46,627 bases of DNA from a virus (Duplodnaviria > Heunggongvirae > Uroviricota > Caudoviricetes): IMG/VR virus record IMGVR_UViG_2541047706_000005, positions 1 through 46,627 of that record; one strand, written 5' to 3'. Shown one piece after another: positions 9,746-29,007 of the stretch (its first letter is position 1; each line of letters begins with the position of its first letter). The position numbers were made by a program, and so were the translations under genes. The notes beneath the pieces were generated by a model, which worked only from the letters and a program-made list of their open reading frames with translations, did not search any database and was not told the DNA's origin.

Positions 9746-10648
9746 TTATGACTCACTTTGTTCTGAGAAGGGGAATGAAGACAGAACAAGAACCTGTCGA
9801 TTTGTCTTATACATGTATTCATTAATGACGTTGTGCAGATTTTTTAACGCCATGCTAAAATCTTTGTCGTATGTAAAGTCTTCTACTTTAATTCTTAAGT
9901 CATTGATAAGAGTATTTATTCCTATCGTTCTTCCGTGAGAATGCCACTTTCCGTTGTCACTAAGAGCGGTAGCGATCATTTTAGCTCTTGCTTCTTTTTC
10001 CCTCTTGGAAACTAGCTTTCCTCGTTTTGTGTTACCTTGATGAACCGTCCACTCTCTGAATTTATACTCTACAAGCCACTTCTTAAGCAAGTCTATTGAT
10101 AGCTCTCTGGCTTGCTCGTATCTCCTTAAGTGCGCAAGATCTAACTGACTAAGCATCATTAGTTCAGCTTGGGTAATGGTTCCTTCTCTGGATTTAGTAA
10201 TCATTTCTTCAACTTTATCAAGGTATCCCAAAGCAGGAACCCATTTACCGTCAGAGGATTGCACTTGAGGGTCAATGGGGCCTAATGAAGAAGCATAGTT
10301 CATGTAAATTTTATCTCCAGACATACACCATATTGTGCCTGCCGACATGGCCATATCTGGAATGATAAAATATACCTCTTGATAGAAATGCCTTGTAATT
10401 TCTACCATTTTTTCCACAGACTCAACAGAGCCACCATTTGTATTGAGTATAATAACTAGAAATCTATTGGTACGACTGTTAGCCATCTCCCCAATAGCCT
10501 CAAGTTTTGGTTGGTAAACTTCTTTTGACCATGGAAAGATACCACCGTAGTACGCTATGACGTCGCAGCTTGGGAAAAAGTTATTTTTAAATTGCTCTAA
10601 CTGCCAAGAAATGTATGTTTCTAGTGTTGAATCAAGATTTTGGCTCAT
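9746..10648 (-). CDS. ClpP-fold serine-peptidase-like protein (S49/SDH-type) in the rexAB position
   Basis: ILNTNGGSVES and PDMAMSAGTIWCMSGDKIYMNYASSLGPIDPQ align by eye with ClpP INSPGG and QAASMGA...PNSRVMIHQP blocks; directly downstream of cI on the same strand. Confidence 0.7.
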   Translation of the reverse strand: MSQNLDSTLETYISWQLEQFKNNFFPSCDVIAYYGGIFPWSKEVYQPKLEAIGEMANSRTNRFLVIILNTNGGSVESVEKMVEITRHFYQEVYFIIPDMAMSAGTIWCMSGDKIYMNYASSLGPIDPQVQSSDGKWVPALGYLDKVEEMITKSREGTITQAELMMLSQLDLAHLRRYEQARELSIDLLKKWLVEYKFREWTVHQGNTKRGKLVSKREKEARAKMIATALSDNGKWHSHGRTIGINTLINDLRIKVEDFTYDKDFSMALKNLHNVINEYMYKTNRQVLVLSSFPFSEQSES

Positions 10649-14312: not shown

Positions 14313-14525
14313 ATGGACACCGTTAACGGAATGTGTTCAGACGCACCGCGTGCCAAAAAATGTAAGTGCGGAAAATCACCGACAATATTCGACATGGAGA
14401 ACGGGTGCCAAATCTACTGCGCTAACCACGCTGTTGTGGCGGCCGCGAATTATCGCAGTGCGGTAACGGAGTGGAATAACCTGAAATCTGTTAGAGAGGG
14501 AAGTCATGAAAAAACTAACCTTTGA
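14313..14525 (+). CDS. Small Cys-rich hypothetical protein
   Basis: ORF track; several Cys pairs. Confidence 0.4.
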   Translation: MDTVNGMCSDAPRAKKCKCGKSPTIFDMENGCQIYCANHAVVAAANYRSAVTEWNNLKSVREGSHEKTNL

Positions 14526-14946
14526 AATTCGATCTCCAGCACATCAGCAAAACGCTATTCACGCGGTACAGCAAATTCTTCCAGACCCAACCAAACCAAT
14601 CGTAGTAACCATTCAGGAACGCAACCGCAGCTTAGACCAAAACCGAAAGCTTTGGGCTTGCCTTGGTGACGTCTCTCGTCAGGTTGAATGGCATGGTCGC
14701 TGGCTGGATGCAGAAAGCTGGAAGTGTGTGTTTACCGCAGCATTAAAGCAGCAGGACGTTGTTCCTAACCTTGCCGGGAATGGCTTTGTGGTAATAGGCC
14801 AGTCAACCAGCAGGATGCGTGTAGGCGAATTTGCGGAGCTATTAGAGCTTATACAGGCATTCGGTACAGAGCGTGGCGTTAAGTGGTCAGACGAAGCGAG
14901 ACTGGCTCTGGAGTGGAAAGCGAGATGGGGAGATCGGGCTGCATGA
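14506..14946 (+). CDS. ninB: NinB recombination protein
   Basis: 146-aa translation recognised as lambda NinB (MKKLTFEIRSPAHQQNAIHAVQQILPDPTKP...). Confidence 0.95.
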   Translation: MKKLTFEIRSPAHQQNAIHAVQQILPDPTKPIVVTIQERNRSLDQNRKLWACLGDVSRQVEWHGRWLDAESWKCVFTAALKQQDVVPNLAGNGFVVIGQSTSRMRVGEFAELLELIQAFGTERGVKWSDEARLALEWKARWGDRAA

Positions 14947-15470
14947 CTATCAAATCAAATACGCCAGCACACGACAAGGACTGCTGGCAAACGCCGCTTT
15001 GGCTTTTTGATGCACTGGATATTGAGTTTGGATTCTGGCTGGATTCGGCAGCGAGCGACAAAAATGCTCTGTGTGCTCACTGGCTAACTGAGGCCGACGA
15101 CGCGCTCAATTCTGAGTGGGTAAGCCACGGTGCAATCTGGAATAACCCACCGTACAGCAATATCAGGCCGTGGGTGGAAAAAGCCGCTGAGCAGTGCATA
15201 CAACAGCGACAGACGGTAGTGATGCTTGTGCCAGAGGATATGTCAGTCGGATGGTTCAGCAAGGCTCTGGAGAGTGTCGACGAAGTTCGCATTATCACTG
15301 ATGGACGGATTAATTTTATCGAACCATCGACAGGGCTGGAGAAGAAGGGAAACAGCAAAGGCTCCATGCTGCTGATTTGGCGACCGTTCATCAGTCCTCG
15401 ACGGATGTTTACTACCGTATCCAAAGCGGCATTGATGGCGATCGGGCAGAGCGTCAGGAGGGCGGCATGA
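14943..15470 (+). CDS. Phage DNA N6-adenine methyltransferase (Dam-like)
   Basis: NPPY motif (IWNNPPYS); start taken at ATG overlapping ninB stop; occupies the ninC position. Confidence 0.8.
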
Positions 15471-15643
15471 GACGACAGCGACGAAGTATCACCGACATCA
15501 TCTGCGAAAACTGCAAATACCTTCCAACGAAACGCTCCAGAAATAAACGCAAGCCAATCCCAAAAGAATCTGACGTAAAAACCTTCAACTACACGGCTCA
15601 CCTGTGGGATATCCGGTGGCTAAGACATCGTGCGAGGAAATAA
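15467..15643 (+). CDS. ninE: NinE
   Basis: [47 protein letters not shown]... recognised as lambda NinE-like. Confidence 0.8.
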
Positions 15644-15649
15644 GGGGAT

Positions 15650-15768
15650 TGACGCGATGATTTATCCGGGGCTATATTCCCAGCACGCCAGCAAAATCTG
15701 GCGTCGGGATTGGCGTCCCGGATAGAGACCGCGACAGACACACGCCGCGAGCGTGTTTTTTTATTGTC
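15650..15768 (+). ncRNA. Candidate small structured RNA (promoter-like element, three hairpins, terminator)
   Basis: TTGACG-17-CTATAT, then stems acgccag/ctggcgt and cggga/tcccg, ending in acacgc-cgcga-gcgtgt plus T7; no ORF. Confidence 0.3.
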
Positions 15769-15923
15769 GAATGCACGCGCACATCTGAATTATGGTGGGC
15801 TGTGTGGGGGCGGAGAGATCCGCGCCGGTCGGTTTCCCGGTTACGCCAACCCTGCACAGTTCACCACCAGACGATTGGCGTCGTCGGTGGTGAGTTATTT
15901 AGAAACCACTCGAGGGCGTCATT

Positions 15924-16604
15924 ATGACAACTCAAATCTCTGTTGAAACTCTCTCCCCGATCACCCATAACCAGATTCCTGTTATCACCACCGAACTTTT
16001 GGCGCAGCTTTATGACACAGAAATTCTGAATATCCAGGTTAACTTCACCAGAAATAAAGAGCGTTTTGTCGAAGGAAAGCACTTTTTTAAAGCAGTGGGT
16101 GAAGAATTAAAAAATTTGCGACTTACTTTAAGTAAGTCACAAAATCCCATCTCTCCCAAAACCCGCTCCCTCATCCTCTGGACAGAACGCGGCGCAGCCC
16201 GTCACGCCAAAATGCTCGAAACCGATCAGGCGTGGGATGTGTTCGAAAAACTGGAAGACTGCTATTTCAGCCAGTGCGAGAAAAATACTGGCAAACAAGA
16301 GAAGAAGCTCAACGGGCTTTCCGCAAAAGAAACAGACAGCCTTGTATGGCTATGGGATTATGCCAACCGCTCACAGGCATTATTCCGCGAACTGTATCCG
16401 GCGCTAAAACAAATTCAATCGAACTATTCCGGCAGATGCTACGACTACGGTCATGAGTTCTCGTATGTTATTGGAATGGCGAGAGACGTTTTAATCAATC
16501 ACACACGAGATGTTGATATTAATGAGCCAGACGGACCAACGAATCTTTCCGCATGGGTAAGGCTTAAGAACAAAGAATTACCTCCTTCACTGCATCGCTA
16601 CTGA
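15924..16604 (+). CDS. ORF6N-domain protein (antirepressor/Roi-like)
   Basis: N-terminal [38 protein letters not shown] resembles the ORF6N domain as remembered. Confidence 0.6.
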
Positions 16605-16631
16605 CAATTGACAACTTAACAAACCCAGCTT

Positions 16632-16652
16632 CGGCTGGGTTTTTTATTGGTG
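16632..16652 (+). terminator. Rho-independent terminator
   Basis: cccagc-ttcg-gctggg followed by T-run. Confidence 0.6.
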
Positions 16653-16672
16653 AATTTTCAATATGAGAGGAC

Positions 16673-17401
16673 ATGACAATGAACGAGCTGATAAATAGCA
16701 ACGTCATCAAAATGACTAGCATTGAAATCGCTGAGCTTACAGGTAAGCGTCATGACAATGTGAAACGAACCATCGAAACGCTGGCTAAAAATGGTGTTAT
16801 CCGGCTTCCTCAAATTGAGGATTGTGGAAGAATCAATGGGTTAGGATTAAATCAAAGTTTTTGTGTGTATGTATTCGAAGGCGAACAAGGAAAGCGAGAC
16901 AGTATTGTCGTTGTAGCCCAGTTGTCGCCAGAGTTCACCGCTCGCCTTGTTGACCGCTGGCGAGAGCTTGAAGAAGCTGCGGTTAATATCCCCAAAACGC
17001 TACCGGAAGCGTTGCGCCTTGCTGCTGATCTTGCTGAGCAGAAAATGCAGCTGGAAAACCAGCTCGCAATTGCCGCACCTAAAGTTGAGTTTGCCGATCG
17101 CGTTGGCGAGGCCAGCGGAATTTTGATTGGAAACTTTGCAAAGGTTGTCGGTATTGGCCAAAACAAACTGTTTGCATGGATGCGCGATCACAAAATCCTT
17201 ATTGCTTCAGGTTCCCGGCGCAATGTGCCAATGCAGGAATATATGGATCGCGGCTATTTCACAGTGAAAGAAACAGCGGTCAACACAAATCACGGAATAC
17301 AGATATCGTTCACCACAAAAATCACCGGGCGTGGTCAACAGTGGCTGACCAGAAAGCTGCTCGATAACGGAATGCTGAAAGTAACAGGGGAGGCTGCTTA
17401 A
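16673..17401 (+). CDS. Rha-family regulatory protein with KilA-C-type antirepressor domain
   Basis: N-terminal SIEIAELTGKRHDNVKRTIETL (Rha-like) plus C-terminal domain typical of phage antirepressors. Confidence 0.6.
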   Translation: MTMNELINSNVIKMTSIEIAELTGKRHDNVKRTIETLAKNGVIRLPQIEDCGRINGLGLNQSFCVYVFEGEQGKRDSIVVVAQLSPEFTARLVDRWRELEEAAVNIPKTLPEALRLAADLAEQKMQLENQLAIAAPKVEFADRVGEASGILIGNFAKVVGIGQNKLFAWMRDHKILIASGSRRNVPMQEYMDRGYFTVKETAVNTNHGIQISFTTKITGRGQQWLTRKLLDNGMLKVTGEAA

Positions 17402-17691
17402 TGGCTAACCTACGCAAAGAAGCGCGCGGCAGAGAATGCCAGGTACGTATTTACGGCATATGCAATGACAATCCTGAAACTACAGTTCTGGCACATTACC
17501 GGATGGCTGGAATTTGCGGAACTGGAATGAAGCCTGACGACCTGATCGGCGCATGGGCTTGTAGCGCGTGTCACGATGAAATCGACCGGCGTACAATGAT
17601 TCTCGACAACAAAGACGCCAGACTTTACCACCTCGAAGGCGTGATCAGGACGCAGGCGATACTGCTGAAGGAGGGGAAGATTAAGTCATGA
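17401..17691 (+). CDS. DUF1364/YbcO-like Cys-rich protein
   Basis: 96 aa with conserved Cys/His pattern; immediately upstream of rusA as in other lambdoid prophages. Confidence 0.55.
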   Translation: MANLRKEARGRECQVRIYGICNDNPETTVLAHYRMAGICGTGMKPDDLIGAWACSACHDEIDRRTMILDNKDARLYHLEGVIRTQAILLKEGKIKS

Positions 17692-18286: not shown

Positions 18287-18935
18287 TGGCAGCAAATACC
18301 GAAATATTTGGGTAGTTGGCGATCTGCACGGATGCTACACGAACCTGATGAACAAACTGGATACGATTGGATTCGACAACAAAAAAGACCTGCTTATCTC
18401 GGTGGGCGATTTGGTCGATCGCGGTACAGAGAACGTCGAATGCCTGGAATTAATCACATTCCCCTGGTTCAGAGCTGTACGTGGAAACCATGAACACATG
18501 ATGATTGATGGCTTATCAGAGCGTGGAAACGTCAATCACTGGCTGCTTAATGGCGGTGGCTGGTTCTTTAATCTCGATTACGACAAAGAAATTCTGGCTA
18601 AAGCTCTTGCCCATAAAGCAGAAGAACTTCCGTTAATCATCGAACTGGTGAGCAAAGGTAAAAAATATGTCATTTGCCACGCCGATTATCCTTGTGATGA
18701 ATACGAGTTTGGAAAGCCAGTTGATCATCAGCAGGTAATCTGGAACCGCGAACGAATCGGCAACTCACAAAACGGGATCGTGAAAGAAATTAAAGGCGCG
18801 GACACGTTCATCTTTGGTCATACGCCAGCAGTGAAACCACTCAAATTTGCCAACCAGATGTATATCGATACCGGCGCAGTGTTCTGCGGAAACCTCACAT
18901 TGATTCAGGTACAGGGAGAAGGCGCGTGGGCATAA
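18264..18935 (+). CDS. ninI: Lambda-type Ser/Thr protein phosphatase (NinI)
   Basis: GDLHG, GDLVDRG and GNHE metallophosphatase motifs; matches lambda phosphatase as remembered. Confidence 0.9.
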
Positions 18936-19444
18936 GAGAACTAAACCTCACCAAAGAACAGCATGAGTGGCTGAATGGCTGGCTTGAACTGTGGGGCGCA
19001 TGGGTTTATTCAGGTCGTCTGGAAAAGCGCATGAGCAGCGTAATAGCGAAGTTCATGGAGAGCGTAGAGCCGGGAAGAGTTATGACAAGGCCAATGTGTA
19101 ATGATGATGATGGAATGTTGATTTCTCAGGTCGTCGATTCCGTCATGTATATTGACAAGAAAGCCTTTGGCATCCTCCTAAGCTACTACGCTCATGGTTC
19201 ATCTAAGCGAGCAATTGCATCCTACTATCACGCGACTGCAAAGCCACGCAAGATGTGTGGACGTGGTGGCGAGGGATGGAGAAAACCTTCACTGGCAACC
19301 TGTAGAAACGAAATTGACGACATCCTGAAAGCGTCATTATTTGTTTTATACCAGCCAATGCAAAATGCTTTTAAAATGCGTAAACGTGTTGAGAAAGTTA
19401 AGCATGTTGCTGTTAAAAGCCTTGACATGCAATTATCCATTTAG
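18926..19444 (+). CDS. Late-gene antiterminator Q (Q82/Q21 type, not lambda Q)
   Basis: WLELWGAW N-terminal motif typical of the Q82/Q21 family; position just before pR'. Confidence 0.65.
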
Positions 19445-19507: not shown

Positions 19508-19582
19508 GGGTCAGTCGTATAAAGGTCATTACGGAAGGCTGTTAACCTTCTTATCGTGGTTCGAGTCCACGCTGTCCCGCCA
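19508..19582 (+). tRNA. tRNA-like gene, anticodon GTT (Asn) by hand folding; non-canonical acceptor/D-arm
   Basis: T-arm cgtgg-ttcgagt-ccacg, anticodon stem gaagg/ccttc with loop ctGTTaa, 3' gcca; one acceptor mismatch. Confidence 0.5.
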
Positions 19583-19587
19583 AACAT

Positions 19588-19663
19588 GCTGTTTTAGCTC
19601 CAATGGTAGAGCGGTCGCCTTGTAAGCGAATGGGTAGCGGTTCAAGTCCGTTAAACAGCACCA
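19588..19663 (+). tRNA. tRNA-like gene, anticodon TGT (Thr) by hand folding
   Basis: Acceptor gctgttt/aaacagc, D-arm gctc-caatggta-gagc, loop ctTGTaa, T-arm agcgg-ttcaagt-ccgtt, 3' ACCA. Confidence 0.6.
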
Positions 19664-19834: not shown

Positions 19835-20158
19835 ATGAAGATGCCAGAAAAACATGACCTGTTAGCCGCCATTCTCGCGGCAAAGGAACAAGGCATCGGG
19901 GCAATCCTTGCGTTTGCAATGGCGTACCTTCGCGGCAGATATAATGGCGGTGCGTTTACAAAAACAGTAATCGACGCAACGATGTGCGCCATTATCGCCT
20001 GGTTCATTCGTGACCTTCTCGACTTCGCCGGACTAAGTAGCAACCTCGCTTATATAACGAGCGTGTTCATCGGCTACATCGGTACTGACTCGATTGGTTC
20101 GCTTATCAAACGCTTCGCTGCTAAAAAAGCCGGAATAGAAGATGGTGGAAATCAATAA
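19835..20158 (+). CDS. S: Lambda S holin
   Basis: 107-aa [39 protein letters not shown]... recognised as lambda S (dual-start MKM). Confidence 0.97.
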
Positions 20159-20618
20159 TCAACGTAAGGCGTTCCTCGATATGCTGGCGTGGTCAGAGGG
20201 AACTGATAACGGACGTCAGAAAACCAGAAATCATGGTTATGACGTCATTGTTGGCGGAGAGCTATTCACTGATTACTCCGATCACCCTCGCAAACTTGTC
20301 ACGCTAAACCCCAAACTCAAATCAACAGCCGCCGGACGCTACCAGCTTCTTTCCCGTTGGTGGGATGCATACCGCAAGCAGCTTGGCCTGAAAGACTTCT
20401 CTCCGAAAAGCCAGGACGCAGTGGCACTGCAACAGATTAAAGAGCGTGGCGCTTTACCGATGATTGACCGCGGTGATATTCGTCAGGCAATCGACCGTTG
20501 CAGCAATATCTGGGCTTCACTGCCGGGCGCTGGTTATGGCCAGTTCGAGCATAAGGCTGACAACCTGATTGCAAAATTCAAAGAGGCTGGCGGAACGGTC
20601 AGAGAGATTGAGGTATGA
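20142..20618 (+). CDS. R: Lambda R endolysin (lytic transglycosylase)
   Basis: 158-aa [39 protein letters not shown]... recognised as lambda R. Confidence 0.97.
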
Positions 20619-21082
20619 GCAGAGTAACCGCGATTATCTCAGCTCTGGTTATCTGCATCATCGTTTGCCTGTCATGGGCTGTTAATCATTACCGTGATAA
20701 CGCCATCGCCTACAAAGAGCAGCGCGATAACAAGGCCAGTGAACTGGAGAAGGTGAACGCCACCATTACTGACATGCAGCAGCGCCAGCGTGATGCTGAT
20801 GCACTCGATGCTAAATACACGAAGGAGTTAGCCGATGCAAAAGCTGAAAATGATGCTCTGCAGCGCAAGCTTGATAATGGTGGTCGGGTGCTCGTCAAAG
20901 GCAAGTGTCCAGTGTCAGCCGCAACCCAAACCACCGGCGCCGCCAGCATGGGCGATGATGCCACCGTCGAACTCTCTGCAGTTGCTGGACGAAACGTTCT
21001 TGGTATCCGATCCGGAATCGTCAGCGACCAAACAGCCCTGAGAGCGCTGCAGGAATACATCACCACGCAGTGCCTGAAGTAA
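20615..21082 (+). CDS. Rz: Rz i-spanin (lambda-like N-terminus, diverged C-terminus)
   Basis: [31 protein letters not shown]... as lambda Rz; coiled-coil C-terminus. Confidence 0.85.
20835..21041 (+). CDS. Rz1: Rz1 o-spanin lipoprotein embedded in Rz (+1 frame)
   Basis: [19 protein letters not shown] lipobox followed by Pro-rich segment, as lambda Rz1. Confidence 0.7.
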
Positions 21083-27975: not shown

Positions 27976-29007
27976 ATGGCTGCAATTACCCCCAGCTACA
28001 CCATCGTCAACCCGTCGTATATTGCGCCGGAGTTGATCATTGGTTACCAGCAGGCGTCCGGTGCGTTCGAAACCATCGCCAGCGGTAACCCGCAGGTCCG
28101 CCTTGGCGTAGGCGACCAGTACGTTTATATGCGCCGCCTGGATATTCGTACCCAGGTAACCTCCAGCCAGTCCGGCAACGCCAACCAGCTGCCGAGCGTG
28201 GCGCTCGAGGCGCGCATGATCTCCACTCCAACCTACCTGTTCCGCTGCCGTGGTATCTACGATCACCACGACACCGCGGCGGCCGGTAACTGGAACGTGG
28301 CACTGCCAGAAGCTCAGCGTCTCGGCATGCGTCAGGGCATCTTCCAGCAGTTGCGTTCTGCGCTGCTGTACGGCATGAACCCGGCAGGCGGCGAAGGTCT
28401 GCTGAACACCGCAGGCGCGACCACCGAAACCCTGCCGCCGGACAGCAACAGCAACACCACTGTGCTGACCTACGACCATGGACAGATGGCTGTCTATCTG
28501 CTGGGCCATGTACAGGCCGCGCTGACCCGCACCATGCAACTGGGTCGCCAGCAGCGTGTTGTTATCCTCGGGCCGCAGCGAGTGCTGGGCGCGATGGAGA
28601 TTCAGCAGATCGTTCAGCTGACATCTTATCAGCGTCCTGGCGGCGGTACTGATACCGTCGGCGGCACCGTGAAAGAGGTTCTCCGTGGCGCGAATGTTCA
28701 GGTTGACTGGGTGTACGACGACACGCTGATCGGCGCCGGTGCCGGCGGTACTGACGCGGTAGTTATCACCATCCCGGAAGTGGAAGTGCCGATGGTTAAC
28801 TCCACCGTGAACACCAACGAATTCGCCAAACTGAGCCCGTCTCTGGCGGCTAATGCCCTGATGTTCACCGACATGGCGGCACCGATGGAAATCCCGACGC
28901 CAATCCCCGGGGGCGCTATCGACGTGCTGTCAGAAATGCGCTCTACGGCTGGCTGGGCAGTCCGTCCGGAAGCTATCACCATCCTGTCGATGGCATACAG
29001 CTCCTAA
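27976..29007 (+). CDS. Major capsid protein (putative)
   Basis: 343 aa, followed by a strong terminator, position after scaffold. Confidence 0.6.
   Translation: MAAITPSYTIVNPSYIAPELIIGYQQASGAFETIASGNPQVRLGVGDQYVYMRRLDIRTQVTSSQSGNANQLPSVALEARMISTPTYLFRCRGIYDHHDTAAAGNWNVALPEAQRLGMRQGIFQQLRSALLYGMNPAGGEGLLNTAGATTETLPPDSNSNTTVLTYDHGQMAVYLLGHVQAALTRTMQLGRQQRVVILGPQRVLGAMEIQQIVQLTSYQRPGGGTDTVGGTVKEVLRGANVQVDWVYDDTLIGAGAGGTDAVVITIPEVEVPMVNSTVNTNEFAKLSPSLAANALMFTDMAAPMEIPTPIPGGAIDVLSEMRSTAGWAVRPEAITILSMAYSS

Follow-up and report, generated by a model that had tools for sequence, protein, structure and literature searches.

A predicted IsrK-type small RNA in a putative P1-like C4 immunity module of a lambdoid prophage

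The viral DNA IMGVR_UViG_2541047706_000005, analysed here over its full length of 46,627 nucleotides (nt) and referred to as the window, contains a 280-nt non-coding gap between ninE and a gene coding for a protein with ORF6N and P22_AR_C domains. An earlier note, made from the sequence alone, had placed in this gap either a structured small RNA or an attenuator of the gene that follows. The locus therefore raises the question of what this RNA is and what it might regulate. The whole window was scanned against the Rfam covariance models using their curated gathering cut-offs. Three adjacent matches over the cut-off were found on the + strand, corresponding to the isrK, c4-a1b1 and C4 families (Table 1). 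The isrK match was full-length (model positions 1-77 of 77; E = 5.9e-15 for the whole window), while that to c4-a1b1 had an E value of 5.3e-10. Authentic IsrK from the Salmonella prophage Gifsy-1 scored 79.3 bits in the same isrK test, and the window RNA was identical to it at 71 of 77 positions. Judged by sequence, the flagged stretch is therefore an IsrK-type RNA, that is, a known prophage small RNA that constitutes the 'a1b1' element of the P1-type C4 immunity modules. The small RNA element between ninE and the ORF6N gene was thus borne out, with its parts where the earlier note had put them, and both forms of the proposal, small RNA and attenuator, fit the biology of this family.

The element is already known: it belongs to curated Rfam families, and an orthologue 92% identical to it has been dissected experimentally. 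IsrK was reported as a 77-nt RNA among experimentally identified Salmonella small RNAs (Padalon-Brauch 2008, PMC2330248), while c4-a1b1 and C4 are elements of immI in phages P1 and P7 (Citron and Schuster 1990, as cited in PMC7313666). In the P1 nomenclature, the 5′ half of the IsrK-type RNA corresponds to a1 and b1, the sites targeted by the C4 antisense repressor. The isrK and c4-a1b1 matches overlap on the same bases (15685-15724), and a single element seems to underlie both families; the Rfam clan CL00128 holds c4-a1b1 and C4, without isrK. It has been published that C4 and isrK occur together in phages and are related to the CI and seqA RNAs of P4 (PMC7313666, PMC10111431), and an Rfam-based annotation of E. 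coli O157:H7 EDL933 listed isrK twice, plus C4 (PMC5331693).

The window was compared with Gifsy-1, P1 and 15 divergent phage or prophage loci. Apart from P1, all of these (16 loci, Gifsy-1 included) showed an isrK match followed, about 25 nt further on, by a C4 match. The P1 locus matched c4-a1b1 and C4, its isrK score lying under the cut-off. The 264-nt RNA region alone found matches in 287 phage records, mostly of Stx-converting phages. A longer query of 361 nt, which reached back into the end of ninE and forward into the start of the ORF6N gene, matched 1639 of 5426 complete E. coli genomes, with a maximum of seven places in one genome; coverage of the query was 80% or more in 722 genomes, and 427 records matched at 99% identity or more. 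No RNA was annotated over the module in any GenBank or RefSeq record inspected, and some of these records place hypothetical proteins or an "immunity region" coding sequence (CDS) over the IsrK-C4 RNAs. The practical value of the finding lies in the annotation of these RNAs in phage and prophage records.

Table 1. Features at and around the IsrK-type RNA (window positions; ORF, open reading frame)
Feature	Position	Strand	Description	Basis
ninE	15467-15643			Pfam NinE, 7e-44
Promoter	15649-15678	+	Sigma-70 type; -35 TTGACG (15649-15654), 18-nt spacer, -10 TATATT (15673-15678)	Scan, conservation
c4-a1b1 (RF03163)	15672-15724	+		50.7 bits (cut-off 46.7)
isrK (RF01394)	15685-15761	+		77.3 bits (cut-off 50)
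IsrK-type small RNA	15685-15762	+	c4-a1b1 element plus terminator, ~77-78 nt	Rfam isrK and c4-a1b1; identity with Gifsy-1
Hairpin 1	15685-15704	+	ACGCCAG/CTGGCGT (15685-15691/15698-15704), loop CAAAAT	Covariation
Hairpin 2	15705-15720	+	CGGGA/TCCCG (15705-15709/15716-15720), presents a1	Covariation
a1	15710-15716	+	TTGGCGT, loop of hairpin 2	
b1	15725-15731	+	GAGACCG, unpaired linker	Read from sequence
Intrinsic terminator	15740-15762	+	ACACGC-CGCGA-GCGTGT, 6-bp stem, 5-nt loop, T6	Scan, comparison
C4 antisense RNA (RF01695)	15788-15871	+	Equivalent of Gifsy-1 STnc1160/'orf45' and P1 c4	66.7 bits (cut-off 45)
33-codon ORF	15792-15893	+	From conserved AUG in 5′ strand of C4 stem; counterpart of Gifsy-1 orf45	
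b′	15830-15836	+	CGGTTTC, hairpin loop within C4	
a′	15843-15849	+	ACGCCAA, single-stranded within C4	
a2	15875-15881	+	TTGGCGT, same as a1; loop of hairpin CACCACC (15862-15868)/GGTGGTG (15886-15892)	
b2	15902-15907	+	GAAACC, perfect complement of b′; ends 4 nt before Shine-Dalgarno	
ORF6N + P22_AR_C gene	15924-16604	+	AnrP-like, antirepressor-type; ATG at 15924	Pfam ORF6N, 3.1e-20; P22_AR_C, 2.3e-27
Strong terminator	16621-16642	+	After ORF6N gene; 9-bp stem, T-run	
Second antirepressor-type gene	16673-17401	+	Rha N-terminal domain plus ANT/KilAC	
Q-family antiterminator gene	18926-19444		~3 kb downstream of module	
tRNA-Asn (GTT)	19508-19582	+	Between Q-family gene and next three ORFs (19835-21082)	
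tRNA-Thr (TGT)	19588-19663	+	Between Q-family gene and next three ORFs (19835-21082)	

The promoter had been read as TTGACG and CTATAT separated by 17 nt. The site is present, but a better -10 region, TATATT, lies one base further on, leaving an 18-nt spacer. The predicted transcription start is an A at ~15685, and the numbering used for Gifsy-1 (AUG107, AUG119) is consistent with a +1 at position 1 of the Rfam model. When 16 loci were aligned (mean column identity 64%), the TTxA columns of the -35 region and the AxAxT columns of the -10 region were invariant, and both regions lined up with the promoter P1c4 (formerly P51b) annotated in the P1 record. The two GC-rich hairpins described earlier were also found. 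Across the 16 loci, hairpin 1 showed compensatory changes in five of its seven pairs; hairpin 2 had a nearly invariant stem and a loop that was hypervariable among loci, yet always complementary to site a′ of the C4 RNA of its own locus. For the two hairpins together, 93.7% of the alignment cells were paired and the covariation score was reached by none of 500 shuffles, while slid controls fell to 29-47% paired. The terminator was found as described (stem-loop at 15740-15756, T-run at 15757-15762), with six T after the stem, or seven if the last base of the stem is counted. This short terminator (-7.7 kcal/mol) is probably leaky. A hairpin followed by a T-run, with differing stem sequences, was present in all 18 loci, P1 included.

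Generic promoter, terminator and fold signals are by themselves not above chance. A scan of 3 kb (14500-17500) detected one promoter-like site, versus 3.5 ± 1.7 in shuffled sequences, and six terminator-like sites, versus 4.2 ± 2.4; the fold of an 84-nt segment had a z score of -1.89, with 11 of 200 shuffles as stable. The element exceeds chance because of the covariance-model matches, the conserved promoter, the compensatory changes in the hairpins and the presence of the terminator in all loci. The promoter scan showed no further promoter-like site between the terminator and C4, so that C4 and the ORF6N gene would depend on read-through or on upstream transcription.

The C4 RNA begins 26 nt downstream of the IsrK element, beyond the region covered by the earlier note. 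It has the shape of a long closing stem with two inner hairpins. In the consensus fold of the 16 loci, 14 of 27 pairs showed compensatory changes and two hypervariable stretches were left unpaired; in the predicted fold of the window C4, a′ and b′ are likewise unpaired. Conservation across loci extends to the long, acceptor-like stem and to the CACCACCA that follows it, and the 5′ end of mature C4 annotated in the P1 record lies within the AUG conserved in this stem. In P1 and P7, C4 was reported to mature from a longer precursor transcript. This maturation occurs through RNase P processing.

Pairing sites were named after those annotated in the P1 record, which lists, in order, promoter P1c4 (P51b), a1, b1, c4, a2, b2, icd and ant. 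They were analysed in 16 non-redundant phage loci, Gifsy-1 and P1 included, and duplex energies were computed at site level with cross-locus controls. An automatic site finder gave a spurious, G-U-rich match as b1 in the window and in Gifsy-1; in these two loci b1 was assigned by position and by eye. In the window, a1 and a2 are identical and form seven Watson-Crick pairs with a′; b1 forms six Watson-Crick pairs and one G-U pair with b′, and b2 six Watson-Crick pairs. The 16 loci contained nine types of a′ and 16 types of b′, each complementary to the a1/a2 and b1/b2 of its own locus. Mean duplex energies were -9.0 to -11.6 kcal/mol for self pairs and -5.7 to -6.5 kcal/mol for non-self pairs, and few non-self targets matched the self target in binding strength. 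Phage ArgO145 has two modules whose a and b sites are mutually unrelated, each set being internally matched. The covariation is thus three-way, and argues strongly, on comparative grounds, for contact between IsrK, C4 and the leader of the regulated gene through the a and b sites. The minimum-energy fold predicted for the 262-nt read-through RNA pairs GGGAUUGGCGUCCCGG with CCGGUUACGCCAACCC, which is the a1:a′ helix; this fold (-108.1 kcal/mol) had a z score of -4.17, and none of 200 shuffles was as stable. No clear trend in strength was observed between the two b targets: b2 was the stronger at nine of the 16 loci and b1 at six, both being equal at one.

Some further observations concern these sites. 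The loop of hairpin 1 (CAAAAT, 15692-15697), which is not an a or b pairing site, is conserved at the majority of the 16 loci, with two A columns and the last C column invariant or nearly so. The 9-mer ATTGGCGTC occurs three times in the 46.6 kb, as compared with 0.49 expected. Two of the copies are at a1 and a2; the third (28896-28904, - strand) lies far from the module, without the neighbouring b site that was looked for, and is probably due to chance. The two modules of ArgO145, an Stx2 phage, are located at 1187-1369 of comparison locus L004 and at 10363-10550 (- strand) of L018; an ORF6N-type gene follows one of them, and a Rha-family regulator the other. The minimum-energy fold of the isolated leader paired a2 with the Shine-Dalgarno region. 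This was rejected as a conserved feature because the a2 sites of ArgO145 and PhiR12_2* differ from that of the window, yet the surroundings of the Shine-Dalgarno sequence are identical (ArgO145) or nearly so (PhiR12_2*).

The closest system with experimental data is that of Gifsy-1, where transcription from the isrK promoter partly passes the terminator into orf45-anrP (Hershko-Shalev 2016, PMC4825925). The long RNA is translationally silent because the 3′ portion of "orf45" is paired with the middle hairpin of IsrK (structure A), while short IsrK supplied in trans increased anrP translation 139-fold and transcription 8-fold (PMC4825925). The pairing was defined by the mutations G28A and G31A with the compensatory changes C162U and C159U, and single mutations in a1 abolished the activation of anrP by IsrK in trans (PMC4825925). 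When Gifsy-1 is numbered from position 1 of the Rfam model, G28 and G31 fall inside a1, and C159 and C162 inside a′. This numbering indicates that helix b-I of Gifsy-1 is the a1:a′ contact of the P1 system, and that "orf45"/STnc1160 is the C4 RNA. Two literatures are thereby tied together, since the "IsrK / orf45" helix of one is the a1:a′ pairing of the P1 C4 system in the other.

The window shares with Gifsy-1 the promoter positions, the two 5′ hairpins, the terminator, the C4 region and the ORF6N protein; a1 and a′ are identical, so that all four of the residues defined by mutation are kept. The product of the ORF6N gene was 67% identical to Gifsy-1 AnrP over the N-terminal 125 residues, the first 27 being the same, and differs from it by an extra P22_AR_C domain. 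Five of the six differences among the 77 IsrK positions lie at or just upstream of b1. Sites b1, b′ and b2 read GAGACCG, CGGUUUC and GAAACC in the window, and UCACCG, CGGUGAU and AUCACCGG in Gifsy-1. The window thus combines the a specificity of Gifsy-1 with another b specificity, the core of which is common to module 1 of ArgO145. The setting also differs: the module lies between ninE and further nin genes in the window, with Q downstream, while in Gifsy-1 it is directly downstream of antQ, the gene for a Q-like antiterminator that stands at the end of the cascade as its output. The Rfam scan of the window gave no match to isrJ downstream of the module.

The resemblance to immI of P1 and P7 includes the order of the elements (promoter, a1, b1, C4 with a′ and b′, a2, b2, regulated gene) and the logic of two-site complementarity. 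The a and b sequences of P1 are, however, entirely unlike those of the window. P1 regulates icd and, through it, ant, while in the window the first gene is itself of antirepressor type, with no separate icd-sized gene between C4 and the ORF6N gene. In addition, b2 overlaps the Shine-Dalgarno sequence in P1, whereas in the window it ends upstream of it. Phage P22, of lambdoid type, also limits the synthesis of its antirepressor (ant) with a small RNA, sar; this is a true cis-antisense transcript, made from the strand opposite the ant leader. It is not known to be related to IsrK or C4 in sequence or structure.

Taken together, these data make it probable (about 0.8) that the element is the IsrK/c4-a1b1 part of an RNA immunity module similar to P1 immI, located in the nin region of a lambdoid prophage and controlling the translation of the antirepressor-type gene. 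The anatomy, the Rfam membership and the conserved complementarity come from sequence and comparison; the steps of the mechanism are inferred by homology with Gifsy-1 and P1. Most transcripts started at the promoter would end at 15762, as short RNAs of about 77 nt, while a minority would read through into a long transcript containing C4 and the ORF6N message. The long transcript would be silent in translation, as the a1 hairpin would open in cis to pair with the a′ region (structure A). Processed C4 could also bind a2 and b2, beside the ribosome-binding site, through a′ and b′, as in the P1 mechanism. Short IsrK, carrying a1 and b1, would compete in trans for a′ and b′ as an anti-antisense RNA or decoy; the leader would then be freed, the antirepressor-type protein made, and the prophage pushed towards induction. 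With such a competition, the ratio of the short RNA to the read-through or C4 RNA would set a threshold switch.

Several observations weigh against this proposal. The coupling of orf45 to anrP through an AUGA overlap, present in Gifsy-1, was not reproduced in the window: the 33-codon ORF that is the counterpart of orf45 ends 30 nt ahead of the ATG of the ORF6N gene, and the frame that ends in an ATGA overlap with this start opens only at a GTG at 15802 (15802-15927, 41 codons, + strand). Moreover, the ORF starting at the conserved AUG ranged from 3 to more than 58 codons across loci, in differing frames. Site b2 of the window covers only 6 nt and adjoins the Shine-Dalgarno sequence GAGGG (15912-15916) without covering it, though within the ribosome footprint; at most of the other loci b2 overlaps the Shine-Dalgarno sequence, and at one the start codon. 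RNAcofold predicted no intermolecular pairing for IsrK plus C4 or for C4 plus leader (free-energy difference, ddG, of 0.0, no better than shuffles), a result that is uninformative rather than contrary, since RNAcofold retains the hairpins formed within each molecule and has no way of modelling contacts between loops. Finally, co-expression of STnc1160 in Gifsy-1 left the toxicity of IsrK uncountered, which is awkward for a simple decoy, and the authors' model is not framed around a processed C4 repressor (PMC4825925).

The variation in length and frame of the orf45-type ORF, and the lack of start overlap in the window, make coupling through this ORF unlikely as a general mechanism; the 33-codon ORF is probably not a conserved protein. 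That the orf45 frame is not conserved while the C4 structure is suggests that a C4-type RNA immunity switch governs antirepressors in Stx and other lambdoid prophages.

The alternative that survives best is a control of termination as in P4. There, a1 and b1 would serve mainly as a target in cis, and pairing of C4 with the nascent RNA would enforce termination at 15740-15762; read-through would be negatively autoregulated, the antirepressor gene would be left untranscribed and the short RNA would be chiefly a by-product. P4 too has a processed RNA flanked by targets on its upstream and downstream sides (CI RNA; seqA, seqB and seqC), with premature termination of the transcription of replication genes as the outcome, and not translational control of an antirepressor. 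The literature treats CI and seqA as structural homologues of C4 and IsrK, or reports their detection by these families (PMC10111431, PMC4825925); specifically, the C4 family also detects CI RNA and isrK detects relatives of seqA (PMC10111431). Hershko-Shalev et al. raised the same possibility for STnc1160 (PMC4825925). The location of b1, only 8 nt upstream of the terminator stem, and the conserved complementarity of a1 and b1 to a′ and b′ would also suit it. However, no conserved antiterminator structure alternative to the terminator hairpin was found. Further, constitutive STnc1160 strengthened, rather than weakened, the growth arrest mediated by IsrK in Gifsy-1, and the effect of IsrK in trans was mainly on translation and less on transcription (PMC4825925). 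Such a control is thus possible but, in our view, not the likely explanation, and it may coexist with the proposed control of translation.

That the region acts in cis only, as a leader attenuating the transcription of the ORF6N gene, or as a nin-region terminator stopping pR transcripts that are not antiterminated, like tR3 and tR4 of lambda, seems unlikely. The short RNA released would then have no function of its own. The terminator does lie inside the nin region, between ninE and the downstream nin genes, and the requirement for read-through is real in Gifsy-1 (PMC4825925). A dedicated, conserved promoter directly upstream would, however, not be expected, and neither would the conservation of the two hairpins and of a1 and b1, or their covariation with C4, as none of them is needed for termination. 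The activation of anrP by IsrK in trans, and its loss upon single a1 mutations, argue in the same direction (PMC4825925).

The earlier note had also suggested that the RNA may regulate host or phage genes. The best-supported target is the adjacent RNA of the phage itself, and not host genes. A small RNA acting in trans on mRNAs of the host or of other prophages, besides or instead of its own locus, would agree with the label 'Hfq binding' of the Rfam family and with an RNA that ends in a terminator hairpin and a U tail; site TTGGCGT is moreover common to nine of the 16 sampled modules, so that partial cross-talk between prophages is conceivable. However, IsrK has no known host target, and the hypervariable a and b sites follow the C4 of their own locus, not any conserved host sequence, which makes this reading improbable.

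The coding of a small protein, as in some phage records, is highly improbable: mechanical ORFs of 31-78 codons do overlap the region, which had been described as free of ORFs, and coding sequences are annotated across the module in phages P27, SfV and Ayreon, but the stop-free stretches vary in frame and extent among homologues (so no ORF is conserved), the substitutions are compensatory for RNA helices, and the P27 record itself notes 'no RBS found' (no ribosome-binding site) for one of its two putative proteins. These two 'putative proteins' of P27 (2005-2127 and 2198-2341 of locus L002) lie over IsrK and C4, and look like over-annotation. In SfV (orf37, 832-1668 of L012) and Ayreon (832-1668 of L009), an 'immunity region' CDS spans the whole IsrK-C4 module, and the frame opened by the AUG conserved in the C4 stem continues into the gene that follows; this CDS is either an over-long annotation or a real product with an N-terminal extension.

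The preferred reading, an immunity module acting on its own leader, leaves room for a more speculative extension. The a and b sites could form a two-part combinatorial address, and where two prophages with one of the two sites in common reside together, the short IsrK of one might partly titrate the C4 of the other. In the window, an a site of the common Gifsy-1 type is joined to a b core of ArgO145 type, while the two modules of ArgO145 are fully orthogonal in both sites. This idea is considered doubtful; if true, there would be cross-talk or cross-induction at the RNA level among the up to seven modules found per E. coli genome.

The gene downstream of the module had been called a moron. Its product is an AnrP-like protein with ORF6N and P22_AR_C domains encoded in a phage-regulatory module, which does not fit a moron of benefit to the host. 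The gene is followed by a strong terminator and by a second antirepressor-type gene, which has no IsrK-C4 module of its own. Beyond this gene come, in order, YbcO, RusA, NinH, a gene annotated as a phosphatase (the serine/threonine phosphatase label is taken from the best-matching E. coli record) and the Q-family antiterminator gene. The pair of tRNA genes that follows sits where Stx phages carry tRNAs and toxin genes; no stx genes are present here. The prophage is a mosaic: in the segment examined (12000-36000), the early/nin part shares about 98% identity with lambdoid phages of E. coli, and from about 21 kb on, where terminase and further late genes lie, the sequence is about 95% identical to the Klebsiella phages RothC, RothD and Chronis. 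Among the compared phages, Shigella phage Ss-VASD carries, in addition to an IsrK-C4 module, a match to sRNA-Xcc1 (RF02221; 79.6 bits; 2243-2326 of L013, + strand) just upstream of an antitermination gene.

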